Origin: an uncultured Gammaproteobacteria bacterium
GTDB lineage: Bacteria; Patescibacteriota; Microgenomatia; Levybacterales; UBA12049
Assembly (NCBI GenBank): GCA_964610465.1
Contig: CAZSWA010000005.1
Span: 8,456-72,455 of the forward strand
Length of the DNA stretch: 64,000 nt
Reading direction: 5' to 3'
A program made the translations under genes and the position numbers. The notes under the pieces are model-generated. The model was not told where the DNA came from and ran no database searches. It saw only the letters and a program-made list of their open reading frames with translations. Positions 1 through 51,747 of the stretch are shown in pieces (the first letter of the stretch is position 1; each line of letters opens with the position of its first letter).

Positions 1-10
1 AAGTTTGGCT

Positions 11-703
11 ATGAATCAATCAGAGAAAGAAGCATATATGCAGTTGCATGACTCTCTTATGCAAGCTGGCCAACAAGGAGACCAAATTGCTTCGTCAATT
101 CTTTCTGTCACCGATAAAACTTCGATTACTGATATTACAAAGATAGAAGAGCAATTAAGAGAAGCAAAAGAAAAAGGTAATTCCAATGTGCAGGCAGTAC
201 TTGCTCAAACTGAAAGAAAAAAACCACTTAATCTTCCTAATTCCAACAGAATTCAAACAGTAAGCCTTGAGGATTATGAAGCAGTACGTAAAATGTGGGA
301 AGAAAATTATAAAACAGTTCCAGTTCCAGAAGGATGGAGTAATGATAAGAATGGAAGAAAAAGTTGGCTTAAGAAAGAAATTGAGAATATTATGGAAATA
401 ATTAACTTACTTATGTCCAGCGACCCGGAACAACAGGAAGAAGGTTTACGACGTGTACAACGTGTTTTGCCTTTCCTTATGCTTGGAGGTTTTTCAATTG
501 ATGAAATTGTTTCTTACCTGAAGTCAAAAATGGAAGCAGCTAAAGCAGTACTTACCATGCTTGAAGGAGAAGATAGCTCTGATGAAATGGTAGATGAGAA
601 AAATCATTCAGAAGTACCAAATACTATGACAATGTCCCAGGAAGTACCGGATACTACGTTACCTGAAAATACTATTTTGAACAAAAATGAGAATGAAAAA
701 TAA
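11..703 (+). CDS. Hypothetical protein with an N-terminal ~60-aa repeat domain (LHDxLMQ..QQG..IA..IL..T..T.D.D....QLEEAKE.G) shared with the C-terminus of the downstream Clp ATPase. The frame is open to the window edge, so the gene may be 5'-truncated; the ORF track starts at a TTG at 5 and the first ATG is at 11.
   Basis: Long ORF. Internal similarity to two repeats in ORF 753..4130 can be read directly from the translations. No recognisable catalytic motif. Confidence 0.5.
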   Translation: MNQSEKEAYMQLHDSLMQAGQQGDQIASSILSVTDKTSITDITKIEEQLREAKEKGNSNVQAVLAQTERKKPLNLPNSNRIQTVSLEDYEAVRKMWEENYKTVPVPEGWSNDKNGRKSWLKKEIENIMEIINLLMSSDPEQQEEGLRRVQRVLPFLMLGGFSIDEIVSYLKSKMEAAKAVLTMLEGEDSSDEMVDEKNHSEVPNTMTMSQEVPDTTLPENTILNKNENEK

Positions 704-752: not shown

Positions 753-3700
753 ATGTTAGGTAGCCTATTTAATCAAAAGAAAAATCCTTCACAACCGCAA
801 GGGGACACGCAACAAATGTCTCCTAATGGGCAACCATATGGACAAAATTCTCAACAATTTGAGAACAATCAATATGCAAATCAGCAATATCAAAATCAAC
901 AGTACCCAAATCAACCGTATCCAAACCAAAACCCACAATATATGCCACAACAAATGCAACCAATGCCAATGCAACAGCAGTCTATGCCAGGGAATAATCC
1001 TCAGACAAATGTAATTAGCTCAAGAATGAACCCTGTGATGCGGCAGAATTTATCTGCATTATCTCATCTTGATACACGTACTACTCAGGCACTTACTCAT
1101 GCACAGGAGGAGACAAGAAGAATTCGTCAGCAATTTATTGAACCTGAACAGCTTTTGTATGGATTATTGTATGATCAGCAAGTATTCAAACTTCTTGAAG
1201 ATTTTAATGTCGATGTGGCCAAACTTTCAAAAGAACTCCAAACCAAAGAGAGAATTGGAACCTTTATGGGGCAGCCGACTCTTAGCAAGACATCACAAGA
1301 AGTATTTGAACAAGCATACAGAGATACTAAAATGAGAGGACAAAGTTTTGTTGTTCCTGAGGATGTATTAGTAACTCTTTTTAACATTAATTTGACTACG
1401 GCAAGTTATCTTCAAGCACAAGGAGTGAAAAAAGAGCAAGTAGTTGAAAAACTTTCCAAAACAATATCTGCGACATACGGCAAAAAAAGCGCACTTGATA
1501 AATATGGTACTGATCTTACAGAACAGGCACGTCAAGGGAAACTTGATCCAGTTGCAGGACGGGATAAAGAACTTGATAGATTGATTCATATTTTACTTCG
1601 TAGAACTAAAAATAATCCTATTATTATAGGGGAGCCGGGAGTTGGGAAAACTGCAATAGTTGAAGGACTTGCAGAAAAGATAGTTTCAGGAAGTGTCCCA
1701 AAGGAGCTTCAGGATAAAAGAATTTTTCAGCTGGATATTTCTGCATTAGTTGCAGGAGCAAGCCATAGAGGTGAGTTTGAAGAGAGACTGAAAGAAGTAA
1801 TTACTGATACACTGGCATCAGCAGGGCACACGATTCTTTTTATTGATGAGATACATACAATTATTGGTACAGGTGACAATGAAGGCTCACTTGACGCATC
1901 AAATATTATAAAACCATATTTAGCCCGGGGACAATTGCAAATTATTGGTGCTACTACAACAACAGAATTTAGAAAGAAATTTGAGAAGGATAAAGCATTT
2001 GAGAGACGTTTCCAGTCAGTACAAGCTGATGAACCGAGTGAAGAGAGCGCAATTGAGATGCTGAAAATTTTAAAACCAAAATATGAAATATTTCATAAAG
2101 TAACTTTTCCAGATGATACCTTAGAGGCAGCAGTAAAACTTTCCAAAAAATATGTCGGAGAGAGATTTTTGCCAGATAAAGCAGTAGATCTTCTTGATGA
2201 AGCAGCATCAGAAGTAAAGCTACAAATCGCAGCTGGAAAACGGCAGGATAACGTAGTGAAAAAAACAGATATCGAAACAGTAGTTAGTACCTGGACTGGA
2301 ATTCCAATTACCAAGTTGACAGAGGATGAAAGTGAAAAGCTCTTACGTCTTGAAGAGCGTATTCACAAACGTCTTGTCGATCAGGAAGAAGCATGCGTTG
2401 CAGTGGCAGAAGCAGTAAGAAGAGGACGTATTGGGCTTGCCAGTGCCAATAGGCCAATTGCTTCTTTTGTGTTCTTAGGTCCGACAGGTGTGGGGAAAAC
2501 AGAACTTGCCAAGACGCTTGCTGAAATACTTTTTGGGAGAGATGATGCAATGGTGAGACTTGATATGAGTGAGTACATGGAGAAACATGAAGTGGCAAAA
2601 CTTATTGGAGCGCCTCCTGGATATGTGGGGTATGAAGAAGGAGGACAATTAACAGAGGCTGTACGGAAAAAACCCTATTCTATTGTACTACTTGATGAAA
2701 TAGAAAAAGCCCACCCTGATGTATTTAATCTTTTGTTGCAGTTATTAGAGGATGGGAGACTGACTGATAATAAAGGGAATACTATCTCGTTTAAAAATAC
2801 TATTGTAATTTGTACTTCTAATATCGGAAGTGCACTTATCCAACAAAGATTAAGCCTTGAAGATCCAAAAATCAAGAAAACTCCTGAGGAATATAATAAA
2901 ACTTTTAAAGAGCTTAACGATGTAGTCAAAGAAGAACTTATCAAATTTTTCAGACCAGAGCTTCTTAATCGTTTTGATGAGGTAGTTATTTTTAAACCTC
3001 TACGGCTTGAACATATGTATGGTATTGCCAAGTTTAGTATCAAAAAAACTGCAGGACTTCTTAAAGAACAAGGGTTTGATTTACAAATTACCGATAAAGC
3101 AATTGAAAAGTTGGCAAAAGATGGCTATGACCCTGTATATGGAGCACGTCCTTTACGTCGTCTTGTGCAAACTGCAGTAGAAAATCCTATCGCCCTTGAA
3201 ATTATTTCCAAGAAATTCGCAGTGGGTGATACTATTGTTATAGATTACGACGAGAATACCAACCAATTTATATTTTCAAAGCCCAACGAAGGGAAAGTAG
3301 CAGCAACAGAAAAATATGATGCACTCGTATATCGCACTGCATTCCGGAGAATAGCAAGTCCTATGGATGTGCAAAATCCAGCTGAGCACAAAATGCTCAC
3401 TGAGCTTCATGATAAACTTATGGCACAAAGTCAACAAAATAATCAAATTGCAGCAGCTATCCTTGCAATTACAGAGATGACCTCAGATGGTGATGTATTG
3501 CGGATGAAACAACAGCTTGAGCAAACAAAAGAACAAGGTGACCCGTTGGCAACAGAAATTCTTCAAACAGTTGAGCAAACAATCATCATGGAAGAATTGT
3601 GGAATCTCAAAGTAGTACTTATGCAGATGATAAATCCTTTGACTGTCTCGAAAGAAAATAAAGAAACGTACACAAAACTACATGATACCGTATTACAGTT

Positions 3701-4130
3701 GAGCCAACAAGGGAATCCACTTGCAGGCGTATTACTTGCTATCAATGAAACAACTCCAGATGCAGATTTACAAAATATAAAACAGCAATTAGAGGAAGCA
3801 AAAGATCAAGGAGATACTACTGCTATTACAATTTTAACTTTAGCAAATCCTTTCCATGATCCAAACGTCAAAGTATCACAACAAGAACAAGCTTCACAAA
3901 ATAATCAAAATCCCCAACCAGTACCACAACAAATGCAACCAATGCCTTCTGACCAAACATATCCTTTTGGTTTGGGTCAGCAAGATGCAAATGCTCCTGA
4001 AACGCCATCTCAAGGTGATATAAGACAACAAATGCCTTTTGATGAAAATAATCAGACAAACCAGCCAATACAAAATGGTATGGCAAATATTTCCTCTTCA
4101 AATGGTATGATGCAATCGGGAAATAATTAG
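753..4130 (+). CDS. Clp/Hsp100-family AAA+ unfoldase with two NBDs. NBD2 is ClpB-like ([11 protein letters not shown]). The M-domain is deleted and there is no ClpP-binding [ILV]G[FL] loop. It has an N-terminal Q/N/Y/P-rich prion-like region, a Clp_N-like region, and a C-terminal extension with two ~60-aa repeats and a Q/N-rich tail. Most pipelines would annotate it as ClpC/ClpB.
   Basis: NBD1 Walker A GEPGVGKT and Walker [13 protein letters not shown]2 Walker A GPTGVGKT, Walker [11 protein letters not shown] and sensor-2 GARPLRR. Only ~14 aa lie between [11 protein letters not shown] and TWTGIP, where ClpB carries the ~120-aa M-domain. N-terminus: [33 protein letters not shown]. Confidence 0.85.
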
Positions 4131-4190: not shown

Positions 4191-5924
4191 ATGGAAGAGG
4201 TGAAAGAGAAAACAACTCCAGCGGAAAAATTCTTTTGGCTGTATTTTAAAAATAATAGAAAAGAAATTTCTCTAGGTGTTTTACTTCTATTTATATTGCT
4301 GTTTTTCATTCTTATCTTTTTTAGTAGAATACATAAGAAATCAACAAGTATTCCTGCACAACCAATACCAACACCTGCACAGACTTCAGAGAAAGTGCCA
4401 GGACAAATTTTGGTTAAATTCAAACGTGCAGTACCCGAGGCAGTTATAGCAGAACACTTACAAGTATATAACGCATCTGTTTCAGGAACGATTAAGGATA
4501 TTGGAGTAAGTATAGTACAGGTACCAAAAGGGCAAGAAGATGCTATACTTACTGCGCTTTCACATGATGCAATTGTTCAATATGTGGAAGCGGATTATTA
4601 TTCCCATGCATTCGCATTTCCAAATGATCCCTATTTCTCAAATCAGTGGGGACTTCATAATACTGCACAAGCCATACAAGGAAAAACAGGAGCATCAAAT
4701 GATGACATTCATGCAGTTGATGCATGGAATGTGACACAAGGTGATGGAATAAAAGTTGCGATTCTTGATACAGGTATTAATCAAAATCATCCTGACTTAG
4801 CATCAAAAATTGTACTACAAAAAATATTTTATACGAATTCTCTTGAAGATAACTTTGGACATGGAACGCATGTTGCCGGTATTATCTCAGCAGTAACCAA
4901 TAATTCTCAAGGAGTTGCAGGTGTTTGTCCAAATTGCCAGCTTATGATTGGGAGAGTATTGGATGATAATGGTAGCGGGCCAACTTCAAATATCGCCACA
5001 GGAGTAACATGGGCTGCAGACAATGGCGCCAAAGTCATCAATATTAGTGCTGGAGATACTGTTTTTGTACAAGCACTTGCAGATGCAATAACATATGCGT
5101 GGAATAAAGGCGTAGTAATTACCGCTGCAGCAGGTAATTCGAACACAACACAAAAATTTTATCCTGCTGCCTATCCTAATGTGATAGCAGTTGCCGCAAC
5201 CGATAATAATGATACAAAAGCGTCTTTTTCAAACTATGGAAGTTGGGTATTAGTAGCTGCTCCTGGAAGTAATATCTTTTCAACTCTTCCTGATCATACA
5301 TATAATATGCAAAAAATGAGCACTCTCAATTTAAATTATGATTATCTTTCTGGTACTTCAATGGCAAGTCCATTTGTTGCAGGTGCTGCTGCATTAGTTT
5401 GGGCATCGCCGTATGGCACATCAAATACAGCAGTCGTACAAAGACTTGAGAATACCGCAGATAAGATAACAGGAACTGGTACCTACTGGAAATATGGACG
5501 AATAAATGTGGCAAATGCAGTAGGTTTTAGTGTAACTACACCAACTGTACAGCCTTTAACTCCACCAACGTCTACTCCTACTCAACAACCAAAACAAACA
5601 ATTGCACCAACTATTCCTCATGTAACACCAACTCCTACCTTGCCTTTTGCAACTCCTACTTTTTATTGCGCTGGGGGAGTAAATTGCCTACCATCAACTA
5701 TTCCATCTCCTACTGTTCCAGTTATCCAAAATACTCCTCGCCCAACTCAAGTTTTTCAAAACGGAACTCCTACTTCAGTGATTACATTTGGAGTACCTAC
5801 TAATGTTCCAGGTATTTTAGGAGGAAGAAATCATGGTGGAAACAATAATAACTTCCAGCGACTTCGAAACTTTCTTATGCAGCTTGTTAAGCTACTCTTA
5901 AAAATGCTTTTTCCATTCTTCTAA
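4191..5924 (+). CDS. Subtilisin-like serine protease (peptidase S8) with an N-terminal TM anchor, an I9-like propeptide and a C-terminal P/T-rich region.
   Basis: Catalytic triad motifs: D (ILDTGI), H (HGTHVAGII), S (GTSMASPFVAGAAALV). Hydrophobic helix LGVLLLFILLFFILIFF near the N-terminus. P/T-rich linker TPPTSTPTQQPKQTIAPTIP. Confidence 0.85.
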   Translation: MEEVKEKTTPAEKFFWLYFKNNRKEISLGVLLLFILLFFILIFFSRIHKKSTSIPAQPIPTPAQTSEKVPGQILVKFKRAVPEAVIAEHLQVYNASVSGTIKDIGVSIVQVPKGQEDAILTALSHDAIVQYVEADYYSHAFAFPNDPYFSNQWGLHNTAQAIQGKTGASNDDIHAVDAWNVTQGDGIKVAILDTGINQNHPDLASKIVLQKIFYTNSLEDNFGHGTHVAGIISAVTNNSQGVAGVCPNCQLMIGRVLDDNGSGPTSNIATGVTWAADNGAKVINISAGDTVFVQALADAITYAWNKGVVITAAAGNSNTTQKFYPAAYPNVIAVAATDNNDTKASFSNYGSWVLVAAPGSNIFSTLPDHTYNMQKMSTLNLNYDYLSGTSMASPFVAGAAALVWASPYGTSNTAVVQRLENTADKITGTGTYWKYGRINVANAVGFSVTTPTVQPLTPPTSTPTQQPKQTIAPTIPHVTPTPTLPFATPTFYCAGGVNCLPSTIPSPTVPVIQNTPRPTQVFQNGTPTSVITFGVPTNVPGILGGRNHGGNNNNFQRLRNFLMQLVKLLLKMLFPFF

Positions 5925-5987: not shown

Positions 5988-6326
5988 ATGAGAGAATATA
6001 TGTTACTTCCTGGAGCATTTTTAAAATTTTGGTTTATTGAAGCGCCTTTGATAATGATAAAGTTTTTCGTATCTCTTAATCAAGCATTTTTCCAATTATT
6101 TTCCTTGTCATTATTTTTAAAAACTTTTTTTAAACCTCTTAAGAATGAATATCGGCCTGGTTTAGTACGGTTTTCAATTATCATGGGCATTGTAGTAAAA
6201 ACTGTATTTATTCTAGTTGACTTACTTTTATTTTCTTTATTACTTAGTGTTGAGCTAATAAGCCTCATTGTGTTTCTCATTTTCCCATTCGTATCTTTGA
6301 TTTTATTGATAATGCCAAACATATGA
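5988..6326 (+). CDS. Small, very hydrophobic predicted membrane protein. It could be an independent gene or the frameshifted N-terminal part of the downstream Clp paralogue.
   Basis: ORF of 112 aa made almost entirely of hydrophobic stretches (LIVFLIFPFVSLILLIM). It ends 4 nt into the next ORF, in a different frame. Confidence 0.3.
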   Translation: MREYMLLPGAFLKFWFIEAPLIMIKFFVSLNQAFFQLFSLSLFLKTFFKPLKNEYRPGLVRFSIIMGIVVKTVFILVDLLLFSLLLSVELISLIVFLIFPFVSLILLIMPNI

Positions 6327-8719
6327 TCACGTATGCCAGACTCTATCATTTCTACCGCACTGCAACACTCCGCAGTATAAGGCTATTAGTATTCTTTCTT
6401 TTACTTTTTGTAATAGTCAATGTAATATCAAGAGGTTTATTTCCTCGGTTTCCTCTTTTTTTGTTAAACCTTTTTATTATGAGTGAAATTTTTTTTCGTT
6501 TTAAAATCGCGCGAACTACACCATATATAAAAGTAACTGCGAATAAAGGAGAAAATCCGCTCATTTCTTTTAGTATGAATGCTCTTTATACGTACTTAGT
6601 GAATCAAAAGTCGTCATCCATTATTGCAAAGCTTATGAGTAATTCTCAAGTTCGTGCAATATTTGAGAAAGCAAATATTCAGGAGAAAGAGTTGTCTCTT
6701 CTTGACTATGAAAAAAATCTACTGGCAAAGACGGCATTTGATGTGGCAAGAAATAGAAATGGCCAATTTGTAACTACAATGGATTTGATAACTGCGTATC
6801 TTCTTGATACAGAAGGACAAACAAAACTACTCTTTAATAAGAAACTCAAGTCAGAAGAATTATATGCTATTTTGCATTGGGCAAGCAAGAATTTTCCTGA
6901 TGAAGAAATGCCCAAGCAGATAGCAATCCATTTATATGGTTCAGGAATTGGTGAATTTCTCACCACCGGATGGACTCCTGAAACAGAGAAATATACTCGT
7001 GAAGCAATATCAGGAGAAAAACCTCTTCTTATTGGCCGTGAAGGAGAATTTAAATCTCTTACTGATACATTATTGAAACCTGAAAACAACAATGTGTTAT
7101 TAGTAGGTGAACAAGGAGTTGGAAAAGAGACACTTGTACAAGCGCTTGCATATTATAGCATTGATAATGCTCTCTCTGCAAAATTAAATGATAAAAAAAT
7201 ACTCGAATTTCTCGTTGGACCATTTATTGCAGGCGCAAAGGAGAGAGGCGAATTGGAAGAACGATTACAGGCAATACTTGCTGAGCTTTCTCATTCAGGA
7301 CAGGTCATTATCTATATTCCTGAATTTCAAAATATTATTGGTGCATCGTCTTACAATCTTGATATTTCAGGAGCACTGCTTCCTTATCTTCATGATGGCA
7401 ATGTGCTTATTATTGCTACTATGACAAACGGGAATTACAAGAATTACATGGAGAAAAATCCCTTAAAGGAAGTATTTGGCATAATTGAATTGAGAGAACC
7501 TGATACACATACTGCATTACAAATGGTGTTTGAAAAAGCATCTGAGATAGAAAAGAAAACAGGTGTTATCCTGAGTTATCGCGCACTCGTTGCTGCAGTT
7601 GAATTTGCCAACCGCTACTTTCAGGATACTGTACTTCCAGGCAGTGCAATCTCACTTCTTGAAGATGTAGCAGCTAGTACTGCAGTATCAGGCAGCAGTC
7701 AGTATGGGAGTTCTCATCGAAAAATCGTTTTGGAGGAAGATGTCACTCGTAAAATAGAAGAGAAAATGCATGTCGCTATTTCAGCTCCTACTGGACAGGA
7801 AAAAGACTTACTCCTTCATCTAGAAGACAAATTACATGAACGGGTTATTGATCAAGTGGATGCAATTACTGCAATAGCAGAAGCAATGCGAAGAGTACGT
7901 TCCGGTATGATAACCTCAACACGGCCCATTTCATTTCTTTTCTTAGGTCCAACAGGTGTTGGGAAAACTGAAACTGCAAAGGCTTTGGCTGATTTATATT
8001 ATGGAGGAGAAAAAAATATGCTACGGCTTGATATGAGTGAATATGGAGACGAAGAGGGAGTAAAAAGACTTTTGGGTGCTGCACCTGGTGAAGGACGAGA
8101 ACGGGGAGAATTAACCGACAAAATTGCTGATAATCCTTCTTCTTTGGTGCTTCTTGATGAATTTGAAAAAGCACACCCTAAGATACTTGATCTTTTTTTA
8201 CAAGTTCTAGAAGATGGAAGACTTACTGATAATAAAGGACGAACAGTATCATTTATCAATACTATTATTATTGCAACATCCAATGCTGGAGCAGAATTCA
8301 TAAGAGAAGAAATCGAGAAGGGAACGCCAATTGATAAAAATTTCCAGCATAGGCTTTTTGAATATATACAATCCAAACTTATCTTCAAACCTGAACTTCT
8401 CAATAGATTTGATGATGTAGTTACTTTCAAGCCCTTGGGTGAAACAGAAGTCACACAAATAGTAAAACTTATGCTCAATAGCATCAGTAAAGCATTATAT
8501 GAACAGGATATTGATGTCGTATTTACTGACAAAGTTATTGCCAAAATTGCCAAAGAAGGATCTGATAAGGAATTTGGCGCTCGACCTCTTAGGCGTTATA
8601 TTCAGGATACAATCGAAGACGTATTGGCAAAGAAGAAACTTGCAGAAGAAATAAAGAGAGGAAACAGAGTATCTCTGACAACTGATGAAAATAATAACTT
8701 ACAGGTAGTTATTAGCTAA
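6323..8719 (+). CDS. Second Clp/Hsp100-family ATPase paralogue with a hydrophobic, possibly membrane-anchoring N-terminus and a Clp_N-like region. NBD1 is degenerate: Walker A is GEQGVGKET and the Walker B DE is replaced (IIYIPEF). NBD2 is intact. There is no M-domain and no ClpP loop.
   Basis: NBD2 Walker [17 protein letters not shown], Walker B LVLLDEFEKAHP, GARPLRR. The NBD1 motifs can be aligned by eye against ORF 753..4130 ([11 protein letters not shown] vs GEQGVGKETLV; ILFIDEIHT vs IIYIPEFQN). Confidence 0.8.
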   Translation: MITYARLYHFYRTATLRSIRLLVFFLLLFVIVNVISRGLFPRFPLFLLNLFIMSEIFFRFKIARTTPYIKVTANKGENPLISFSMNALYTYLVNQKSSSIIAKLMSNSQVRAIFEKANIQEKELSLLDYEKNLLAKTAFDVARNRNGQFVTTMDLITAYLLDTEGQTKLLFNKKLKSEELYAILHWASKNFPDEEMPKQIAIHLYGSGIGEFLTTGWTPETEKYTREAISGEKPLLIGREGEFKSLTDTLLKPENNNVLLVGEQGVGKETLVQALAYYSIDNALSAKLNDKKILEFLVGPFIAGAKERGELEERLQAILAELSHSGQVIIYIPEFQNIIGASSYNLDISGALLPYLHDGNVLIIATMTNGNYKNYMEKNPLKEVFGIIELREPDTHTALQMVFEKASEIEKKTGVILSYRALVAAVEFANRYFQDTVLPGSAISLLEDVAASTAVSGSSQYGSSHRKIVLEEDVTRKIEEKMHVAISAPTGQEKDLLLHLEDKLHERVIDQVDAITAIAEAMRRVRSGMITSTRPISFLFLGPTGVGKTETAKALADLYYGGEKNMLRLDMSEYGDEEGVKRLLGAAPGEGRERGELTDKIADNPSSLVLLDEFEKAHPKILDLFLQVLEDGRLTDNKGRTVSFINTIIIATSNAGAEFIREEIEKGTPIDKNFQHRLFEYIQSKLIFKPELLNRFDDVVTFKPLGETEVTQIVKLMLNSISKALYEQDIDVVFTDKVIAKIAKEGSDKEFGARPLRRYIQDTIEDVLAKKKLAEEIKRGNRVSLTTDENNNLQVVIS

Positions 8720-8769: not shown

Positions 8770-11700
8770 ATGAAAATAAGGAAAATTTTGCTTTTCATTA
8801 TCATAAGTTCTGTTCTCTTGTTTGTTTCAGAAATTTTTTCCCCTTCACAAGTAGTAGCACAAACGATAACCCCGACATCTACTTCCAGTTCAACATATAC
8901 TATAACAGGAAATTTTTTCTACGATACTAATGGAGATTTAAAGAAAGATAATGGAGAGGTGAATACGAACTATATAGATGTAGCCGGATGTAATAATGGA
9001 ACTCTTTCCTATACTACTCCAGGACAATACAGGATAAGTATAATAGGCGGAGGAACGTGTACCATCAATTACGGAAGTATTACATCGCCACCTGCCGGGT
9101 ATCAGATTACTTATCCTTCCGGAAATCCTCATAGTTTTACGGTAACTATTGGTTCTACCTGTAACGTGGATGGAACAACAGGAGGAACATGTAGTGGAGG
9201 AAATATCAGTAATCTTAATATTCCTCTTGGTGCTACTGCTGCACCTACGCTAACACCTACTCCTACATCAGTTCCCGCTACCTATAAAATTTCAGGTACT
9301 GTATTTGTGGATGCAAATAATGATGGAAAATTGGATAATGGAGAAAGTCCCTACAAAGCAAGCACTATTACTATTTCTCTTTCCGGTCCTGTAAATACAT
9401 TTACTACGACCGCAAATGGTGCATATACCTTCTCAAATTTACCTATAGGAACCTATACGCTAACTATGACGGTACCGGCAGGATATAATACAACTTCTGT
9501 TAATCCAGCAACAGTAACGGTGAACGCTAATGCAACGCAAAATTTTGGAGTTAGTAGTAATGTATGTACTGCGGGTAGTGGAGCTTCCGAGGTTATGCTT
9601 ATGTTTGATCATTCACAAAGTATGGCAGATAAAGACCCTGCAACAGGCAATACTAAAATAAGTGAAGCAATAAAAGCAGCACAAACATTTCTTAATCTGC
9701 TCAATCAAAATAATCCTGGGGTAAAAGTAGGTCTTATTGAATTTGCTGCCGCAGATAACTACCCCAATCTTGCTGATACCTCGGTTGTTGTGCCTCTCAT
9801 TCAACTCTCGAGTAACTATTCAAATCTTTCTAATGCTGTGAATCAAATGAAGATTGCATCAACACAGGGTACCTGTTTTGACTGTGCGGTTGATCTTCTC
9901 AACAAAGAACTGAAAGCCAATAGCACTCCCTCTGCAAAACATTTAGCAATTCTTCTCACAGACGGGAAGGCGAATGAAGATATTGCAAATGGTACCAATA
10001 ATGTCGATCCTACCACTGCAGAAAACGCTGCTATGAATTTAGTCAATTATGGTGATAATAATTTAAACATAGATTATTATACTGTTGGGGTTGGGAATGG
10101 GAATAATATCGACCCTGCATTTCTTCAGCAGATTGCAAACTCAACCGGTGGTCAATACTTTAACGATCCAACCAATGGTGATTTAACTTCTATTTACACA
10201 CAAATTGCCGGTAAACTAAATACTGCAGCAATTAAAGGTATGGTATATAAAGATGCCAATAATGATGGCAAGTACGACACAGGTGATACTCCACTGCAAG
10301 GATGGACAGTGCAAAATACTGGACCTTCAGGTAAGCAAACAGCAACAAGTGATAACAATGGCAAATTTTCATTTGGCAATCTCTGTATTGGACAATATAC
10401 TACTCAGGAGACTCTTCAGTCCGGGTGGATACAAACCCAACCGCAAAATCCCAATTTCTGGACTACGCTAGTAACGAGCGGAAATTCATTTAATAATATC
10501 AATTTTGGAAATTTACAAGGATATACTGTTTTAGGAAGTGTATTTGTAGATGTAAATAAAAATACTACTAAAGATAGTGGAGAACCAAATTACACAGGAT
10601 TACCTATACAGATTAACACGAGTGCTCCAGGAGCAACTGTGAGTTACCCAAGTCCTGGTACATTTAAAATAAGCGGAATAACTACAATTAGTGCACCAAT
10701 TAGTGTACAGTTTACAAACGCTTCTACAATACTGAATACAGGGTACCAAATGATTTACCCGTTAGGTACGCCTCCAGCTTTTTCTGTTACTGTAGGTCCG
10801 TCATGTAATATCAAGAGTGTATCAAACGGAGCACAATGTGACGCATCAGGCAATATCTCAAATCTCAATTTTGCTATCAGTAATTCATATCCTTGGATGC
10901 AATCTTCTGATTTAAATATCCGTGATGATTTCGGATTTAGTGACAATATCTCTTCTACTTCTTTGTGCACCGATTATACCTCAAAACCTGATGCATCATC
11001 AGCGAATCCCGGATATCCAGGAATAATTTTTTCTGGGCAAGTAAATGCGTTCTTCTGGCAGGGCAAGGCATCAAAAAAAAATTGGATAGTGGGAAGTTCA
11101 CTTTACCCTGAGGTATTCCAGAGTAGCAGTAATTTAAAAACAGAATACGATTATTTGCTCTCTACTATTAAGAATTCTGGAGCAACTATTACTGATTTTA
11201 CTGCGATTACTGATGCAAGTGGGAATCATACATGTAATAATCTTTCGAATTGTTCATTACCACCTAATCTGGCTCCAGGAGTGTATCAGGCATCAGGAGA
11301 TGTAATACTTACCGGGAGTGGGAGTCCTGTAGCCTATACGTTTTCTGCCAATAACGGACACTATATATTTCTCGTCAATGGAAACATAACGATAAAGGAA
11401 CGAATTGTTACCCCCAATGGGACCAATGCAATATTTTCATCGGCTGGTAATATTATCATTGATAAAACAGTTGGTGCTTCAAGTTTAACTTGCAATGATT
11501 CTCCGGGAGAAATTCAAGGAATTTATAGTGCTGATAACCAATTTATTGTCGATGGCTATCATGATTGTGTTACTCCTCAAGTTGATAGTATATTGACGAT
11601 TGAAGGAACAGTTATTGCCAACGCTGCAAGACAAAATACCCAAGAATCATTCATCTTTAACAATAGAGACTTGTGTGGTAATGACCCAAGTTATCCTGTT

Positions 11701-11790
11701 GTTTTCTTACGAGCTCGTCCTGACTTTATTCTTTCTGCACCTGATGTGGTAAAACAAAATACATTTGTTACACAAGAAGCCTTGCCATAG
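8770..11790 (+). CDS. Large secreted surface protein (~1000 aa). It has a signal peptide, three SdrD-B/Cna-B-like repeat units and a von Willebrand factor A domain with a MIDAS motif.
   Basis: N-terminus MKIRKILLFIIISSVLLFVSEIFSPSQVVAQ. Repeats GTVFVDANNDGKLDNGE, GMVYKDANNDGKYDTGD and GSVFVDVNKNTTKDSGE. vWA DxSxS motif (MFDHSQSM) and LLTDGKANED. Confidence 0.75.
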   Translation: MKIRKILLFIIISSVLLFVSEIFSPSQVVAQTITPTSTSSSTYTITGNFFYDTNGDLKKDNGEVNTNYIDVAGCNNGTLSYTTPGQYRISIIGGGTCTINYGSITSPPAGYQITYPSGNPHSFTVTIGSTCNVDGTTGGTCSGGNISNLNIPLGATAAPTLTPTPTSVPATYKISGTVFVDANNDGKLDNGESPYKASTITISLSGPVNTFTTTANGAYTFSNLPIGTYTLTMTVPAGYNTTSVNPATVTVNANATQNFGVSSNVCTAGSGASEVMLMFDHSQSMADKDPATGNTKISEAIKAAQTFLNLLNQNNPGVKVGLIEFAAADNYPNLADTSVVVPLIQLSSNYSNLSNAVNQMKIASTQGTCFDCAVDLLNKELKANSTPSAKHLAILLTDGKANEDIANGTNNVDPTTAENAAMNLVNYGDNNLNIDYYTVGVGNGNNIDPAFLQQIANSTGGQYFNDPTNGDLTSIYTQIAGKLNTAAIKGMVYKDANNDGKYDTGDTPLQGWTVQNTGPSGKQTATSDNNGKFSFGNLCIGQYTTQETLQSGWIQTQPQNPNFWTTLVTSGNSFNNINFGNLQGYTVLGSVFVDVNKNTTKDSGEPNYTGLPIQINTSAPGATVSYPSPGTFKISGITTISAPISVQFTNASTILNTGYQMIYPLGTPPAFSVTVGPSCNIKSVSNGAQCDASGNISNLNFAISNSYPWMQSSDLNIRDDFGFSDNISSTSLCTDYTSKPDASSANPGYPGIIFSGQVNAFFWQGKASKKNWIVGSSLYPEVFQSSSNLKTEYDYLLSTIKNSGATITDFTAITDASGNHTCNNLSNCSLPPNLAPGVYQASGDVILTGSGSPVAYTFSANNGHYIFLVNGNITIKERIVTPNGTNAIFSSAGNIIIDKTVGASSLTCNDSPGEIQGIYSADNQFIVDGYHDCVTPQVDSILTIEGTVIANAARQNTQESFIFNNRDLCGNDPSYPVVFLRARPDFILSAPDVVKQNTFVTQEALP

Positions 11791-18161: not shown

Positions 18162-19289
18162 ATGGATATTAATGGGAAAACGCAGTCGTCTTCTGGAGAT
18201 TCTTCATCTCAAAATGCAGGTGATCACGGTGAATCATATGATCAGGTAAGACATCTTGGAGAACTTGTGGAAAATGCTGAGTTGCCAGATGATCTAAAGC
18301 AAACTTTAAATGATAGAATTTCGCGTCTTGCACTTATCCGCTCAAGCTCCGGCTTTATGAGTACTACGTACATATTGGAATATGAGAGCACATCTTCCTA
18401 TATAAACTGGATTGTTGGACTTCCCTGGGATAAAAGCAGCAAAGATATTCTTGATTTACAAAAAGCAAAGGAAATCCTTGATAAAAATCATTTTGGATTG
18501 GAAGGTATAAAAAGCAGAATTCTTGAATATCTTGCAACCATTATTCTTAATACCAAAAACAATACCAAAGAGAATTTGCAGCATGCGCCTATTCTTTGTA
18601 TCATCGGACTTGCAGGAACAGGAAAAACGACCTTGGCAAAATCAATTGCAGAAGCATTGGGGAGAAACTTTGAGAGAATTCCGTTTGGAGGTATGGCAGA
18701 CTCACGTGCTTTAAGAGGCCAATCGCGAGCCTTTGCGGATGCAGAACCTGGCTCAATTATCAAAAAATTGGTGCATGCCAAAACCAATAATCCCGTGATT
18801 CTTCTTGATGAACTGGATAGGGTTACTGAATCTGCACGTGCAGATATTATGGGAGTACTTCTTGAAGTGCTTGACCCTGGACAAAATACAGCATTTACTG
18901 ATCATTATATTGATTATCCATTTAATCTTTCTCAAGTTTTATTTGTCGCAACAGGGAATAATACTACTAATATTTCAACTGCTGTTCTTGATAGACTTGA
19001 TATTTTACAAATGCCTTCCTACACTGATGAAGAAAAACTGGTGATTGGGGAGAAATATCTTTTTGAGAGGATTCGTAGAGAAGTTGGGCTTACTCCACAA
19101 CAACTGCAAGTTGATGAAAATGTCTGGCCCAATGTCATCAGACCTCTTGGATTTGATTCAGGAATCAGAAGCTTAGAACGTACTATAAATGGAGTATGTA
19201 GAAAAGCAGCACGGCTTATTGTTGAAGGAAGTGCACAAAATATACGGATAACTCCTGAGAATGTGAAAGAATTTCTCCCGAGTTGGTAA
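18162..19289 (+). CDS. Lon-like AAA+ ATPase module only. It lacks the N-terminal LAN substrate-binding domain and the entire C-terminal S16 protease domain.
   Basis: Collinear with the Lon ATPase region: LPWDKSSKDILDLQKAKEILDKNHFGLEGIKSRILEYLA, Walker A GLAGTGKTTLAKSIAEALGRNFERIPFGGMADSRALRGQSRAF, Walker B ILLDELDRV. The ORF stops where the Lon protease domain would begin. The next gene is RNase J. Confidence 0.75.
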   Translation: MDINGKTQSSSGDSSSQNAGDHGESYDQVRHLGELVENAELPDDLKQTLNDRISRLALIRSSSGFMSTTYILEYESTSSYINWIVGLPWDKSSKDILDLQKAKEILDKNHFGLEGIKSRILEYLATIILNTKNNTKENLQHAPILCIIGLAGTGKTTLAKSIAEALGRNFERIPFGGMADSRALRGQSRAFADAEPGSIIKKLVHAKTNNPVILLDELDRVTESARADIMGVLLEVLDPGQNTAFTDHYIDYPFNLSQVLFVATGNNTTNISTAVLDRLDILQMPSYTDEEKLVIGEKYLFERIRREVGLTPQQLQVDENVWPNVIRPLGFDSGIRSLERTINGVCRKAARLIVEGSAQNIRITPENVKEFLPSW

Positions 19290-30185: not shown

Positions 30186-30926
30186 TTACATTTTCTCAAG
30201 TTTTGCTTTAATAATCAACCTTTTCCATGTAGTTCCAGGAGGTGTGCAAGTAACAAGAGTGAGATAGCTATCAGTAAAGTCTTGAATGAGTGGAGAAGTG
30301 TCTGTGGCATCAACAATAGTTATAGAAAATATTCTATAGCTATAGGTAACATCTGCGACATGAGCCATGATAATATCATCTATTTTTAATGTATGAGCAG
30401 TTGCAAAAATCGCAGTATAGTCTTTGGGATTAAACCATTGAGGAAGAGTGGAATGTCCAAAAATTACTGCATTGCCTTTATTGGGTGGAATTGCCGTACC
30501 TGCATAATTTACCAGATGGTCTTTTAAATTATTATCAACTGTTGTGACTTCTGCATTTTCAATATTCAATTTTGGTATTGAGATTGTATATGATGAAACC
30601 TGTGAATCAACAGAACCATCCTCATATCCATTTTTTGCGGTAGGAAACCAGTTTTTCGCGTTGTTATAATCAATTCCGCGTAGAGAATTTTCAGTTGCTT
30701 CAAAAAGACTTTTTATAATATTGGGAGTCAAAATGGTAGTTCTTGGAATTGGTGCAACAATTTCCTCTGATGCAAACGCGGGCTGTAAGTAGAGTTGCCA
30801 TGAGATAAGAGGAAAAAACAAATAAAGTCCCAACACCAAACCCGTTATGATAAGACCAAGTCCTAAAAAATGGAGTACTTTTTTTGTAAAAAGTGTATCT
30901 CTTTTTGTGTAGATATATTTACTCAT
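30186..30926 (-). CDS. Sortase-family transpeptidase
   Basis: N-terminal TM anchor. Catalytic His region AVIFGHST. Signature TLxTC (YLTLVTCTPPG) with the catalytic Cys. Confidence 0.8.
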   Translation of the reverse strand: MSKYIYTKRDTLFTKKVLHFLGLGLIITGLVLGLYLFFPLISWQLYLQPAFASEEIVAPIPRTTILTPNIIKSLFEATENSLRGIDYNNAKNWFPTAKNGYEDGSVDSQVSSYTISIPKLNIENAEVTTVDNNLKDHLVNYAGTAIPPNKGNAVIFGHSTLPQWFNPKDYTAIFATAHTLKIDDIIMAHVADVTYSYRIFSITIVDATDTSPLIQDFTDSYLTLVTCTPPGTTWKRLIIKAKLEKM

Positions 30927-33333
30927 CAGATTTTATGGAAAGCGTTATATGTGAACTACTATGAGGAAGAGACTTTGGAATAAAAGGAATATAAGGGGAT
31001 AATTTGATATCACTGCTTTCAATTTGGGGAAGTGCTGAAAGGAGAGTAAGTGCATCTTTATATGATTTTCCTGCAAGTTTATTAATAATATCTTGTTGGT
31101 TGATATTGGGCAAAATACCAGCTTGTACGGCAATGGATGCGGCAATCTCTTTCTCATTTTTTTGTTTCATATTAGTAAATGAACTTTTAATACTTTTATC
31201 TGAGAAGGATGTGTCTGATGCATAATGTTTTCTTAAGAATTGTTGTGCAAAAGTTAGGACATCATCATTTTTGTATGCGATTCCCTGAAAGGTTACATCA
31301 GCGGTAAGTTTGACAGTAGTTGCCTGATCGCCTATATTTTTATCAACATTTGTTTTGCCAAGCGAACTGTTTATAATAATAGGAAGTACAGTTTGCCCGC
31401 TTTGCGCTTTTGAAGAAATATCGCTTTGCGCTTTATCCTGTAGGCTATTAATCACATCAGTTTTTAATTTATCAATATCAGCTTTGGCTACCACCGTTAC
31501 TGTCTTCTTGGTTCCTCCTGAAAAGGCACTGTCATTTTTCCCAGCAAGTGAACTGCTGCTTGCCACAGTAAATTTTGTTGCAGAAGGCAGATTGTAATCT
31601 GTTCCAATATCTTTGGCTGTCACTGTAACTTGTGCAGTTCCAGGTTTGGTTCCTGAAAAGATATCGCCAGAGGCTGAAGCAACATTTATGTCTTTATCTA
31701 AAGTAAATAACAAACCATTTGATGATTTAATTTGGGTTCCTGCACTTAATTGAGCATTAGAAGATACATCACTGTTATATATTGTGACAGTTCCCTTCGC
31801 AGGTGTTCCAACTTCCGTTTTGCCTGTTGCATTGGTTGAATCTGATCCACTTAATGTATCTGAAACGGATTGAGCAGCGATGATGTTATTGCCAAAATCA
31901 TTGGTACCATCAGTATTGAAAATCACTGAATCAGTTTGCTCAACTATTTTTGGCTTTATTGAAACAATGACACTCGCTTGTAATTTTGAACTATACAGAT
32001 AGTAAGCGCCTATAATTAAGAGAACAAGGATAACAATTCCTGCGATTGGTAATATGACACTATTTTTGCCGAAAGGGAGAGAAGGAAGGCGAGGGAGAGA
32101 AATTTTGTCCTTGAGTGACAAAAGATTAGATAAAAATGCAAAGTTTGCTGTTTTGCTTTTATAATCCCCACTACCAATTCGTGTTCTATTAGTTGATTGA
32201 ACAGTTTCATCAAATTGTTTGGGTTGCATATGCAATGTATTAGTATCTTCTTCATCCTCATCAGTTTCTTCTTTTTGTTCAGAGGATGAGTGGATAGTAA
32301 AATGAGGTTCTGTATCAATGGTATCTTCATCAATAGCATCTTTTCTTTCTGGATTTTCTTCATAGACTTCTTCAATATCTTTATCCATTACAAAACCAAA
32401 ATTATCCGAAGCGATATTTTTAGGAAGAGTATCTACTGGAGTTGTACTTGATAGAACCGGCGCATCTTTTATTTTCACCGGTTGTGAGGTATCAGACCCT
32501 AGAGGTGTTTCCGGTCTGGTTGCTACTTTCTGGTCGTAATTTTTGATTGTTTCAGACGGAGCATCAGACATGGAAGGCAGCATTTCAAGCCCCATTTGAT
32601 TTGCAGCACCCGCGACAACTGCTTTTGCATCAAAGTCAACAGGAAGTACGGTTATCTGAGGCATATGAAGGAAGGGAAGACTTTTACTCCACTGAAAGGA
32701 AATAAATTGTTGAGCGATATCTTCTGAATTTTGGGTGTGAAAAAGAATAATGCGGGAAGGGAGGACATCAATAGTGAAATGTTTAAGCTGCGTATCTACT
32801 GTCTGGGTAACTGATTCCTCTATAGGTCCGCTTATTGTTTCAAGATTTTTTCCGCCTCTTACAAGAGTAAGAGTTGTATTGGTATTTCCTATCTCAACGA
32901 GAACTGCTGAAATAGGTGCTCCTTCTTCTTCTTGCATGAGGTTGGCAATTGCCTCACTTATCACAATAAACCCCATGGGAGACAAATCAAGACTATTACA
33001 GACCTTTTTCAGTTTTGCAAGATACTCTTTTTTTATCTTTTTTTCTTCAACCCAATTTTCTTTGACGCCAAAAACCGTTTTGTGAGTTTCGATATGAGGA
33101 GGAAGTATCTCTTCTGCATGACTTATCGTCTTATCAATAGTTTCAATTAAGTCTTCAAGTTCAATTTCTTCAATTGACTTGCTGAACTTTTCGGTTTGCT
33201 TACTTAAGACTTTTATTTTACCTTCTGTTTCTTCAAGAATAACAGCACTTACTTTCTCATCATTGAGTAAGAGCGTGAGGTAATAGTCTGATTTGTCCTT
33301 ATTATTTCCAAATGAAGGTATAGGCAGTTTCAT
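30919..33333 (-). CDS. Bitopic membrane protein. The N-terminal cytoplasmic domain is actin-like (PilM/FtsA-like). It is followed by a single TM helix and a large S/T-rich extracellular region. Its last 8 nt overlap the start of the sortase gene.
   Basis: PilM/FtsA-like phosphate-2 region AVLVEIGNTNTTLTLVRGGKNLETISGPIEE. N-terminal DYYLTLLLNDEKVSAVILEE. TM segment ILPIAGIVILVLLIIGAYYLY. Confidence 0.45.
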   Translation of the reverse strand: MKLPIPSFGNNKDKSDYYLTLLLNDEKVSAVILEETEGKIKVLSKQTEKFSKSIEEIELEDLIETIDKTISHAEEILPPHIETHKTVFGVKENWVEEKKIKKEYLAKLKKVCNSLDLSPMGFIVISEAIANLMQEEEGAPISAVLVEIGNTNTTLTLVRGGKNLETISGPIEESVTQTVDTQLKHFTIDVLPSRIILFHTQNSEDIAQQFISFQWSKSLPFLHMPQITVLPVDFDAKAVVAGAANQMGLEMLPSMSDAPSETIKNYDQKVATRPETPLGSDTSQPVKIKDAPVLSSTTPVDTLPKNIASDNFGFVMDKDIEEVYEENPERKDAIDEDTIDTEPHFTIHSSSEQKEETDEDEEDTNTLHMQPKQFDETVQSTNRTRIGSGDYKSKTANFAFLSNLLSLKDKISLPRLPSLPFGKNSVILPIAGIVILVLLIIGAYYLYSSKLQASVIVSIKPKIVEQTDSVIFNTDGTNDFGNNIIAAQSVSDTLSGSDSTNATGKTEVGTPAKGTVTIYNSDVSSNAQLSAGTQIKSSNGLLFTLDKDINVASASGDIFSGTKPGTAQVTVTAKDIGTDYNLPSATKFTVASSSSLAGKNDSAFSGGTKKTVTVVAKADIDKLKTDVINSLQDKAQSDISSKAQSGQTVLPIIINSSLGKTNVDKNIGDQATTVKLTADVTFQGIAYKNDDVLTFAQQFLRKHYASDTSFSDKSIKSSFTNMKQKNEKEIAASIAVQAGILPNINQQDIINKLAGKSYKDALTLLSALPQIESSDIKLSPYIPFIPKSLPHSSSHITLSIKSDE

Positions 33334-44913: not shown

Positions 44914-45552
44914 TTACTGAATAGTTATTCCGAGGATTGTGTCGCCGATTTGGATTTTATTTACTACATCCATTCCTGATTTTACTATTCCAAAATTGGT
45001 ATATTGTTTATTCAGCCAGGAGGCATCGGTTTTGGTAATGAAAAATTGCGCATCATTTTGTGTTTTGCCGTCTCCTCTACTGGCAACACCAAGAGAACCG
45101 ACTACAAATGGTTTGCTATTAAATTCGACAGGCATACTACCACCGCCTGTGCCATTGCCAAGCGGGTCACCGCCCTGGATTACCCAATCTTCAACGCGAT
45201 GGAAAGTAAGGTTGTTATAGAATCCGCTTTTGGCTTTATTCACAAAATTTTTGACAGTGTTAGGAGCATCTTTTGGATAGAGTTCAAGTATGATATCTCC
45301 TTTTGCGGTTTTGATAGTTGCAGTTGTTGCATTCACATGAGCTATTGTAGCAGAAGAAGGGGTAGGTGTAAAAGCAGCAGATGTCGAAGATGGACTTATT
45401 TTAAGAGAAATGCCTGATGGAACAATGGAAAGTTTTGAAAGTTTATCCAAAGCACTATTTTGAGAAGGACTTTTGGCAGGTTGGAAAGAATAATAGAGAG
45501 CGGCACATACAATTATTACAATAGCAATAAGTGCAGCATAGAATAGTTTCAT
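44914..45552 (-). CDS. Cyclophilin-type peptidyl-prolyl cis-trans isomerase, membrane-anchored or secreted (paralogue 1)
   Basis: Cyclophilin signature NNLTFHRVEDWVIQGGDPLGNGTGGGS. N-terminal hydrophobic segment. Confidence 0.85.
   Translation of the reverse strand: MKLFYAALIAIVIIVCAALYYSFQPAKSPSQNSALDKLSKLSIVPSGISLKISPSSTSAAFTPTPSSATIAHVNATTATIKTAKGDIILELYPKDAPNTVKNFVNKAKSGFYNNLTFHRVEDWVIQGGDPLGNGTGGGSMPVEFNSKPFVVGSLGVASRGDGKTQNDAQFFITKTDASWLNKQYTNFGIVKSGMDVVNKIQIGDTILGITIQ
45174..45237. repeat. ~65-bp tract identical to 45937-46001 inside the two tandem cyclophilin genes (recent duplication or gene conversion).
   Basis: ccctggattacccaatcttcaacgcgatggaaagtaaggttgttatagaatccgcttttggcttt is present at both positions. 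Confidence 0.8.
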
Positions 45553-45677
45553 AGGATTTTTATTGTATCATGTTGCCGATGATTTTCAACCCTCCTTCGC
45601 TAAAGTTTCGGAAGGGCAAGGAGTTTTGTTCTCAGGCTGAAAAATTGTCAAAATAGAATTTTTTGAATTTTGACTAG

Positions 45678-46382
45678 TTATTCTACCGTAATGCCTAGAA
45701 TTTTATCTCCGATTTGAATCTTATTTACCACATCCATACCGCTTGTGACCTGGCCAAAATTGGTATATTGCTGATTAAGCCAGGATGCGTCTTGTTTAGT
45801 GATAAAAAACTGTGAGTCATTGGAAACTTTGATATCGCTTCCACGAGCTACACCCAACGAACCAGTGATAAACGGCACATTGTTAATCTCTGTTGGCATA
45901 AGGCCGCCGCCTGTGCCGTTACCTAATGGGTCGCCACCCTGGATTACCCAATCTTCAACGCGATGGAAAGTAAGGTTGTTATAGAATCCGCTTTTGGCTT
46001 TGATAATAAAATTCTTCACTGTATTGGGAGCGTCTTTCCCGTCAAGCGTTAAGACTATATCTCCTTTGCTTGTTTTAATCGTTGCTGAATAAGAAGCTTT
46101 AATACCATCTTCAACTCCAAATGTTGGTGCAATACCAGTTGGAGTTGGCGGAAGTGCCTGTCTATTTGTTTCTTGTCCTTGTTTTTGGGGAAATGCCTGC
46201 TGCAGTTTCATTTTATCAGCACCTAGAGTCGGTATTTCATAGGGTTGTGAGAGAGATGCGCGCAGTGAATTTCCTTGAGTAGAAAAGTAAATACCTACAG
46301 AAACCAATGCCAAAAGCACAAAAAGCAGAATATACGATTTATTCATTACATAGTATTTTAGCATAAAGAAAGATTTTGCCAA
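45678..46382 (-). CDS. Cyclophilin-type peptidyl-prolyl cis-trans isomerase, membrane-anchored or secreted (paralogue 2)
   Basis: Same cyclophilin signature. Shares a ~65-bp stretch of identical DNA with paralogue 1. Confidence 0.85.
   Translation of the reverse strand: MAKSFFMLKYYVMNKSYILLFVLLALVSVGIYFSTQGNSLRASLSQPYEIPTLGADKMKLQQAFPQKQGQETNRQALPPTPTGIAPTFGVEDGIKASYSATIKTSKGDIVLTLDGKDAPNTVKNFIIKAKSGFYNNLTFHRVEDWVIQGGDPLGNGTGGGLMPTEINNVPFITGSLGVARGSDIKVSNDSQFFITKQDASWLNQQYTNFGQVTSGMDVVNKIQIGDKILGITVE

Positions 46383-49775: not shown

Positions 49776-51747
<1,972 letters not shown>

Follow-up and report, generated by a model that had tools for sequence, protein, structure and literature searches.

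An M-domain-less Hsp100 ATPase of Microgenomatia type and the helical module it shares with a neighbouring membrane protein

The middle domains (M-domains) of the Hsp100 proteins ClpB and ClpC are regarded as their control switch, i.e. as the element that couples them to Hsp70 or MecA and keeps a potentially toxic unfoldase repressed. Two papers (PMC4023160, PMC5699869) describe the M-domain as the part of ClpB that binds Hsp70 and brings about repression, and as the part from which ClpC builds its resting state. Here we analyse an Hsp100 gene located at 753..4130 of a 64-kb stretch of contig CAZSWA010000005.1 (hereafter the window; all coordinates are window positions and, unless stated otherwise, the features lie on the + strand). 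The product of the gene has neither an M-domain nor a ClpP-docking tripeptide, and it carries a C-terminal helical module whose sole other carrier is the giant membrane protein encoded upstream. With moderate confidence we read it as a ClpP-independent unfoldase that is functionally coupled to a membrane complex of neighbouring gene products. A well-conserved family without the M-domain switch and without ClpP docking is a natural experiment in the rewiring and targeting of an Hsp100, and it offers a candidate function for a conserved, unannotated gene cassette of the Patescibacteria, a group whose proteostasis and secretion are nearly unexplored. A literature search on ClpB, disaggregases or M-domain-less Hsp100 proteins of Patescibacteria or the candidate phyla radiation (CPR) found nothing specific.

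Among the described systems, ClpB/Hsp104 is similar in having an N-domain and two AAA+ rings, in lacking a ClpP loop and in its genomic association with dnaK, and E. coli ClpB is the best overall match (699 bits). The present protein differs from it in the absence of the M-domain, i.e. the defining Hsp70-coupling element, in a histidine that replaces the pore tyrosine of the first nucleotide-binding domain (NBD1), in a 13-amino-acid (aa) loop insertion in the second (NBD2), and in having helical modules at the C-terminus as well as long, disordered tails. S. aureus ClpC follows with 695 bits and has an NBD2 loop of similar length, but its M-domain, a short coiled coil of ~60 aa that docks MecA, and its VGF-type ClpP tripeptide are both missing here. 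ClpA likewise has no M-domain and aligns in one stretch, but it is more distant (512 bits), and its IGL loop is absent from the present protein.

There are also Hsp100 proteins that work outside these schemes. ClpG/ClpK and ClpL are independent of both ClpP and Hsp70 and owe this autonomy to extra domains; they keep their M-domains, however, and what they have gained lies at the N-terminus and bears no relation to the module described here. Plasmodium PTEX HSP101 and ClpV of the type VI secretion system (T6SS) are Hsp100 proteins without ClpP that sit on a membrane or secretion apparatus. The analogy with them is functional only: neither has lost its middle domain, the proteins they work with (EXP2/PTEX150 and VipA/B) are unrelated to VirB6-like proteins, and those systems have no known shared repeat module. 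No T6SS genes were found in the window or in six related loci.

The Hsp100 core and its missing elements

The open reading frame (ORF) at 753..4130 is intact from ATG to stop and encodes 1125 aa; four public contigs carry a protein identical to its product (genome GC content 36-38%). More than 100 relatives were found, with 55-75% identity and lengths of 850-1660 aa. Few of them are named, as Patescibacteria, Levybacteria or Levyibacteriota, and the annotations are generic (AAA ATPase, ClpC, ClpB). A sample of 120 of them was scanned, and the counts of relatives given below refer to this sample. Pfam and a motif check identified the features of a class I Hsp100, i.e. Clp_N (aa 117-163), two AAA+ modules (AAA, 290-405, with AAA_lid_9, 429-498; AAA_2, 567-744), ClpB_D2-small (750-830), arginine fingers and sensor 2, whereas aa 1-105 and 840-1125 had no Pfam match.

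The Clp N-terminal domain (aa ~101-245, 1053..1487) aligns with the ClpB N-domain and is modelled by AlphaFold2 (AF2) with a predicted local distance difference test score (pLDDT) above 90. NBD1 (AAA-1, 1488..2249) contains Walker A GEPGVGKT at 1629..1652, pore loop 1 at 1752..1781 and Walker B ILFIDEIH at 1833..1856. NBD2 (AAA-2) together with the D2-small domain occupies 2250..3278, with Walker A at 2478..2501, pore loop 2 at 2607..2645 and Walker B at 2685..2711. There is essentially no variation among the 120 relatives in the Walker motifs, the arginine fingers, sensor 2 or the NBD2 pore loop, which agrees with the initial annotation of an Hsp100 with intact NBD1 and NBD2 motifs.

The protein is a Microgenomatia/Levybacteria-type two-ring Hsp100 ATPase of the ClpB/ClpC clade. 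In a comparison with family profiles, such as the initial annotation had proposed, none of the cutoffs given below was reached. The best NCBIfam match is TIGR03346 (ClpB), in two stretches and with 895 bits against a cutoff of 1232; PRK10865, also ClpB, gives 763 bits (cutoff 1417). The ClpA profiles are below their cutoffs as well (TIGR02639, one stretch, 741 against 993 bits; PRK11034, 570 against 1350), ClpK (691 bits) and ClpG (664) are far below the cutoff of 1900, and ClpV (TIGR03345) has 673 bits (cutoff 885). In the comparison with proteins of solved structure, HSP101 scores 491 bits. The NBD2 segment taken alone is nearer to ClpB (108 bits) than to ClpC (84-87) or ClpA (46), as had been proposed from the sequence. 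The protein resembles a ClpB or ClpC motor in the way it works, but it has neither the M-domain nor the profile score expected of ClpB, neither the M-domain nor the ClpP-docking loop (P-loop) of ClpC, and neither the profile score nor the P-loop of ClpA.

The loss of the M-domain, which in ClpB is a long coiled coil inserted into the small subdomain of NBD1, is apparent in alignments, in spacing and in the structure model. In the comparison with solved structures, E. coli ClpB aligns in two pieces, its residues 6-411 with 106-498 and 525-851 with 496-835 of the Hsp100; ClpB residues ~412-524 have no counterpart, and the M-domain is therefore absent. ClpA, in turn, aligns in a single stretch. 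At the site concerned (2196..2306) the spacer before TWTGIP is 20 aa long, so that the short spacer reported earlier is real and its length of ~14 aa is not. The full-length AF2 model has a helix at 474-493, a short loop and a helix at 504-515, with no coiled coil, and thus confirms the deletion in the way the initial annotation had suggested checking it. Between DEA and WTGIP, nearly all 120 relatives have a gap of 28-30 aa. As controls we used ClpC-type genes of other phyla (at least 80 loci, among the matches listed); such genes, from many phyla, are ~41-50% identical to the Hsp100 among these matches. The corresponding gap has a median of 84 aa in 71 ClpC-type control sequences. Five relatives have longer gaps, and their interpretation as M-domain remnants was rejected: the inserts are P/S/T/E low-complexity sequence, not coiled coils.

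The second loss concerns the NBD2 loop at the position of the ClpC/ClpA P-loop (2814..2960). The Hsp100 has no [ILVM]G[FLM] tripeptide between the anchors TSNIG and FRPE, and none was found in any relative in which both loop anchors could be located by regular expression (about half of the 120), so the absence of [ILV]G[FL] noted at the outset is confirmed for the loop itself; in the controls the tripeptide is present in 55 of 65. The only tripeptides of this type elsewhere in the protein are IGL560, in a conserved RRGRIGLA segment, and FGL1072 in the C-terminal tail. The 13-aa insertion relative to ClpB lies at this same place. The pore loops show a further deviation. Pore loop 1 of NBD1 has His338 (SHR) where ClpA, ClpB and ClpC have the tyrosine of KYR, and the histidine recurs in 118/120 relatives, while 73 of 74 controls have Y or F at this position (KYR, RYR or KFR). 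Pore loop 2 of NBD2, GYVGYEEGG, is canonical.

For want of an M-domain, the known routes by which Hsp70 or MecA switch such proteins, or by which an M-domain holds them at rest, would not be open to this Hsp100; without the docking tripeptide it would not be a canonical Clp protease subunit either.

Both losses are real, but they are not unique to this Patescibacteria lineage, because the Thermotogota (Fervidobacterium, Thermosipho, Thermotoga/Pseudothermotoga) possess a ClpB/C-like family of ~735-745 aa with the same two losses. Its gap at the M-domain site is 23-24 aa in 96/96 sequences, the P-loop tripeptide is found in 0/73, and the identity to the Hsp100 core is ~46%. The combination is thus less unusual than the initial annotation held, and for the two losses this uncharacterised family offers the nearest parallel in nature. 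It differs in keeping an aromatic pore loop 1 (KFR, 120/120) and in having neither disordered tails nor C-terminal modules; in one locus (L056, Fervidobacterium, one of the controls above) the gene is not beside dnaK. We note that members of this ~740-aa family are annotated inconsistently, as ClpC, ClpB or 'ClpX'.

A ClpC-like homolog from Saccharibacteria, another class of Patescibacteria (locus L065, 9893..12280), which is also among the controls, has the same histidine in pore loop 1 (KHR) and no P-loop tripeptide. It differs from the Hsp100 in its ClpC-sized M-domain, in the absence of tails and modules and in not being located beside dnaK. This distribution suggests that the histidine pore loop and the loss of the tripeptide may have preceded the loss of the M-domain within the Patescibacteria radiation.

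The helical module, the giant membrane protein and the gene cassette

The D2-small domain is followed by a folded, all-helical C-terminal extension (3303..3854), in which a lead-in helix is accompanied by a four-helix module of ~70 aa that occurs twice, at aa 875-944 (3375..3584) and aa 966-1034 (3648..3854). The consensus of the module is ..KEKFT.LHDKV..ASQKGN.LAAAILAVTD.T.D..I..LK.QLE.AKEQGD.LA.EIL.. and its structural unit, as modelled by AF2, comprises a lead-in helix with a conserved ..INP.. motif and four helices. The two-module region is modelled with a pLDDT of 90.7 and a predicted template modelling score (pTM) of 0.81. With a hidden Markov model (HMM), the module was found in 99/120 relatives, in 1-6 copies (mode 4) and with a period of ~92-100 aa; the remaining 21 relatives are shorter (850-985 aa) and have no module. 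Copies at the same position of different proteins are 42-58% identical, as compared to 27-32% between positions. The array is therefore old and each of its positions is individually conserved, a pattern that points to position-specific purifying selection on the module.

The module has no Pfam match and no informative structural neighbour. Two possible origins were tried and rejected, namely a displaced ClpB M-domain (hhalign probability 2.6%) and a repeat of Clp_N, i.e. of the protein's own N-domain (0.1%). It had been proposed that Q/N-rich terminal repeat modules replace the M-domain; this does not hold, as the real repeats are the folded 70-aa modules, which the initial annotation did not mention and which do not resemble an M-domain. 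A third copy is located at 14..211, in an ORF that runs off the start of the window. When 1.84 billion cluster representatives were scanned exhaustively with HMMER, the module turned up in only 119 proteins (in 82 at E<=1e-10), and these comprise just two architectures and fragments thereof, Clp tails on the one hand and polytopic giant membrane proteins on the other. The module is an undescribed domain.

The ORF with the third copy (2..703) encodes the C-terminal end of one of these giant proteins. Besides the module it contains a second conserved domain of ~100 aa (EDYxxVxxMWxxNY...LPFLMLGGFS here, EDYxxVxxxWxxNY...LPFL.GGFS in the family), with which the modules of the giants are interleaved. 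In other loci the giant gene lies at L001 2..1210, L003 6447..9896 and L007 1453..9825. The giants have 760-2790 aa (827-2790 aa for the gene upstream of Clp) and consist of an N-terminal signal or transmembrane (TM) segment, ~6-8 hydrophobic segments within the first ~380 aa, and 2-20 modules thereafter. Every contig carrying the Hsp100 gene breaks inside the giant gene; the break is a repeat-induced assembly gap.

The TM domain of 11 of 30 giants matches TrbL/VirB6 (PF04610) at E<=0.01 (best E 4.4e-6). The position of the match within the TM domain is consistent, and two individual scores, 21.7 and 22.5 bits, are under the gathering cutoff of 25.9. Moreover, the ~100-aa gene before the giant matches T4SS_pilin (PF18895, VirB2-like). 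These matches, sub-threshold in Pfam as far as the giant is concerned, suggest that it may be a VirB6/TrbL-like polytopic membrane protein. In a 2025 survey of type IV secretion systems (T4SS) in Patescibacteria, VirB6 homologs were scarce in Microgenomatia, 'suggesting extreme sequence divergence', and Clp is not mentioned there (PMC12102498).

The gene order around the Hsp100 gene is conserved. In 6/6 other genomes (L003-L008) it reads (hrcA-grpE-dnaK)-dnaJ, a pilin-like gene, the giant, Clp, in some cases an S8 peptidase, a small TM protein, a membrane-anchored Clp2 of ~800 aa and, further on, nusA-infB. The genes of this cassette lie on one strand in the six related loci, with intergenic gaps of 1-104 bp, and the pilin-like gene adjoins the giant in all six. 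The window shows the same downstream part of the cassette. Neither clpP nor dnaK was found in the 64 kb; since dnaK is linked in 6/6 genomes and the window shares the downstream part, dnaK is therefore taken to be present beyond the contig break. This also answers the question of its presence that the initial annotation had raised. No ClpP signature was found within +/-10 kb of the Hsp100 gene in the six related loci.

That the module is common only to the Hsp100 and to the membrane protein upstream suggests that the Hsp100 is an unfolding machine coupled to the membrane and not a prion-like chaperone. We envisage a hexameric, two-ring, ATP-driven unfoldase that would thread its substrates mainly through the canonical NBD2 pore loop, would unfold or disaggregate proteins independently of ClpP, and would be expressed together with the DnaK system. 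Its targeting and regulation would have moved from the M-domain to the tails and the C-terminal modules. The shared module may recruit the Hsp100 to the membrane complex of its neighbours, or make it act on this complex, and the coupling would be functional and perhaps physical. By analogy with VirB6, the tail of the giant is presumed to be cytoplasmic.

Several points weigh against this reading. A crude hydropathy count is ambiguous on the membrane topology of the giant's tail, and a homotypic or heterotypic contact between modules is something that we purely infer. The full-length AF2 model has low confidence in part of NBD2. The Clp relatives without modules (~21/120) still adjoin giants with 2-20 copies (12 in L005; ~20 in the 2790-aa protein of L007), and a simple module-module tether is therefore not universal. 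In addition, there may be a physical link to DnaK, and there may be a non-canonical contact with ClpP, for instance via the YPFGxG motif of the C-terminal tail that is described below.

The position downstream of hrcA-grpE-dnaK-dnaJ in 6/6 related genomes would also be expected of a plain cytosolic substitute for ClpB, in which the N-domain, the tails or the modules contact Hsp70 in place of the M-domain and the module of the giant is an unrelated element that binds Hsp70 or substrate. The ClpB-like NBD2, TIGR03346 as the best NCBIfam match and the missing ClpP loop are in line with this, yet the M-domain, besides which no docking site for Hsp70 is known in ClpB (PMC4023160), is absent from all 120 relatives, the module has no similarity to it, and some relatives have no modules at all. 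Such a substitute would moreover leave unexplained why the module is shared exclusively with the adjacent membrane protein, and we consider it unlikely.

The VirB-like neighbours can be taken further than functional coupling. The NBD2 exit face of the Hsp100 might dock through the modules onto a VirB6-like channel and feed unfolded cargo across the membrane, as a CPR-specific motor analogous to PTEX (HSP101-EXP2) or to a T4SS coupling ATPase. The modules are indeed on the C-terminal, i.e. exit, side, which is not occupied by a ClpP loop; they are shared with the VirB6/TrbL-like polytopic protein only, the VirB2-like pilin gene is always adjacent (6/6), genes for secreted VWA/SdrD and S8 proteins follow downstream, and the scarcity or divergence of VirB6 homologs in Microgenomatia (PMC12102498) would fit. 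However, the cassette contains no VirB4 or VirD4, the TrbL matches are below the Pfam cutoff, the hydropathy count of the giant's tail is ambiguous, no candidate cargo was identified, and the linkage to dnaK points to quality control and not to secretion. An export motor of this kind seems to us quite improbable.

The features that are apparently undescribed are the histidine pore loop, the motif-bearing tails, the private module shared with the VirB6-like neighbour, and the cassette with a degenerate Clp2. Speculatively, and with little confidence on our part, Clp and the degenerate, membrane-anchored Clp2, together with the VirB2-like pilin and the extended VirB6-like giant, could form an undescribed Patescibacteria machine, in which the Hsp100 is docked by the module to a membrane channel and either exports unfolded proteins from the cell, in the manner of PTEX, or extracts them from the membrane; the M-domain and the ClpP loop would then have been discarded as the coupling moved to the C-terminal face.

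The disordered tails

Both ends of the Hsp100 are predicted to be disordered (pLDDT <50 in AF2). The N-terminal tail (aa 1-100, 753..1052) has a pLDDT of 30-45 and contains 42% Q+N and 14% P. The C-terminal tail (aa 1038-1125, 3864..4127), rich in Q, N and P, has a pLDDT of ~30-35. The initial annotation had described Q/N-rich, prion-like termini of ~85 and ~80 aa; the enrichment was seen again, and the lengths are ~100 and 88 aa. By the Michelitsch-Weissman criterion a prion-like domain contains >=30 Q+N within 80 consecutive residues. The best 80-aa window of the N-tail has 39 and passes, and this tail is the most Q/N-rich segment of the 64-kb window (24 in the next ORF; background 9.4%). 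The best window of the C-tail has 29 and is narrowly under the criterion.

N- and C-terminal low-complexity extensions occur in all relatives (median N-extension ~110 aa), and their composition varies, being mostly P/A/S/T/Q-rich. The value of 30 per 80 aa is reached by the N-tails of 11/120 relatives and the C-tails of 8/120, with a median of 17, and in seven relatives both tails are Q/N-rich. A 15-bp tandem repeat in four copies, detected by Tandem Repeats Finder at 870..929 within the N-tail, encodes QYPNQ and is a signature of slippage expansion. High proline disfavours amyloid cores on prion-propensity scales, and the proline content of the Hsp100 tails is 12-14%. Compared to the prion-like domains of Sup35 and Cb-Rho, the N-tail is alike in the Q/N criterion and in disorder, but the Hsp100 tails are proline-rich and not conserved in Q/N, and the C-tail is sub-threshold.

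Two short motifs, by contrast with the composition, recur. The extreme N-terminus carries M[FLI]Gx[LIVF]F (M[FL]GxLF(NQKK)) in 110/120 relatives, at 753..782 in the window, and YPFGxG is found in the C-tails of 36/120, here as YPFGLGQ at 3960..3980. Because disorder and motifs are conserved and the Q/N richness is lineage-specific, we infer that the tails are flexible linkers with short docking motifs (MFGxLF, YPFGxG). Their Q/N richness is probably lineage-specific compositional drift and not a conserved prion domain.

We find very little to recommend a prion-like, self-assembling chaperone, in which Q/N-rich termini would drive the formation of condensates or amyloid and thereby regulate the unfoldase. 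Such a chaperone would account for an N-tail that is the richest of the window, for the predicted disorder of both tails and for the seven relatives with two Q/N-rich tails; it is opposed by the ~90% of relatives that are not Q/N-rich, by the C-tail count of 29, by the proline content and by the partial origin of the tract from a recent 15-bp slippage repeat. The prion-like angle is the weakest aspect of the locus, probably compositional noise, and the link between the module and its membrane partner the most interesting one.

The YPFGxG motif, of a hydrophobic-Gly type, bears on another alternative, namely that the Hsp100 is a non-canonical Clp protease subunit to which ClpP or another peptidase docks elsewhere than at the NBD2 loop, e.g. 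at YPFG[LMT]G in the C-tail, by analogy with the C-terminal motifs of proteasomal ATPases. The occurrence of the motif in 36/120 C-tails, the ClpC-like length of the NBD2 loop and the ClpC type of the closest relatives outside the family (among the matches listed) could be cited for it. Most relatives have no YPFGxG, however, clpP is absent within +/-10 kb in 7 loci, and the adjacent S8 protease is extracytoplasmic. We regard a protease subunit of this kind as most improbable, and a ClpP-independent unfoldase coupled to the membrane remains our preferred reading.

Clp2 and the remaining genes of the window

The second Clp-like ATPase, Clp2, is encoded at 6323..8719 (+) and has 798 aa, with two TM helices at its N-terminus. 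Its NBD1 is degenerate (Walker A GEQGVGKE, Walker B IIYIPEF), the Walker motifs of NBD2 are intact, and both pore loops are without aromatic residues (AGAKERGELE; GAAPGEGRERGE). Clp2 has no M-domain and no P-loop. A homolog of ~800 aa is found downstream of Clp in 6/6 other genomes, and Clp2 probably belongs to the conserved cassette of the Hsp100 gene.

The gene directly after the Hsp100 gene (4191..5924, +) encodes an S8 subtilase that has a TM anchor, a prodomain of the fervidolysin type and a C-terminal region rich in P and T. The TM anchor and the prodomain are the reason why this protease is taken to be extracytoplasmic. An S8 peptidase occupies the equivalent position in L007 and L008 and is not found there in L003-L006. 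Between the subtilase gene and Clp2, a multi-TM protein of 112 aa without Pfam match is encoded at 5988..6326 (+), overlapping the start of Clp2; L005, L006 and L008 have an ORF of ~109 aa at this position. Downstream of Clp2, at 8770..11790 (+), there is a gene for a secreted protein of 1006 aa with VWA, SdrD_B and CarboxypepD_reg domains, and a VWA protein is encoded in the equivalent place in L003 and L005.

A promoter and terminator scan around the Hsp100 gene gave nothing convincing. No match to CIRCE, the HrcA operator, was found at <=3 mismatches anywhere in the 64 kb, nor in L008, although groEL is present in the window (50104..51747, +). In L003 a CIRCE-like site with three mismatches is located upstream of hrcA (1932..1958), which weakly supports a possible control by HrcA.

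The window otherwise consists of housekeeping genes, such as nusA, infB, pnp, rnj, ftsK, alaS, rpoBC, groEL and secA. Three further loci may be mentioned. At 18162..19289 (+) a Lon-like protein of 375 aa is encoded, with a Lon-type AAA+ module and the Lon lid and without a protease domain, i.e. ATPase-only. On the opposite strand, a sortase gene overlaps the end of a gene for an 804-aa protein with a weak Baseplate_J-like match (E 7.5e-6) at 30186..33333 (-). Two neighbouring genes at 44914..46382 (-) encode cyclophilin-type peptidyl-prolyl isomerases, each with an N-terminal extension of ~80-100 aa.

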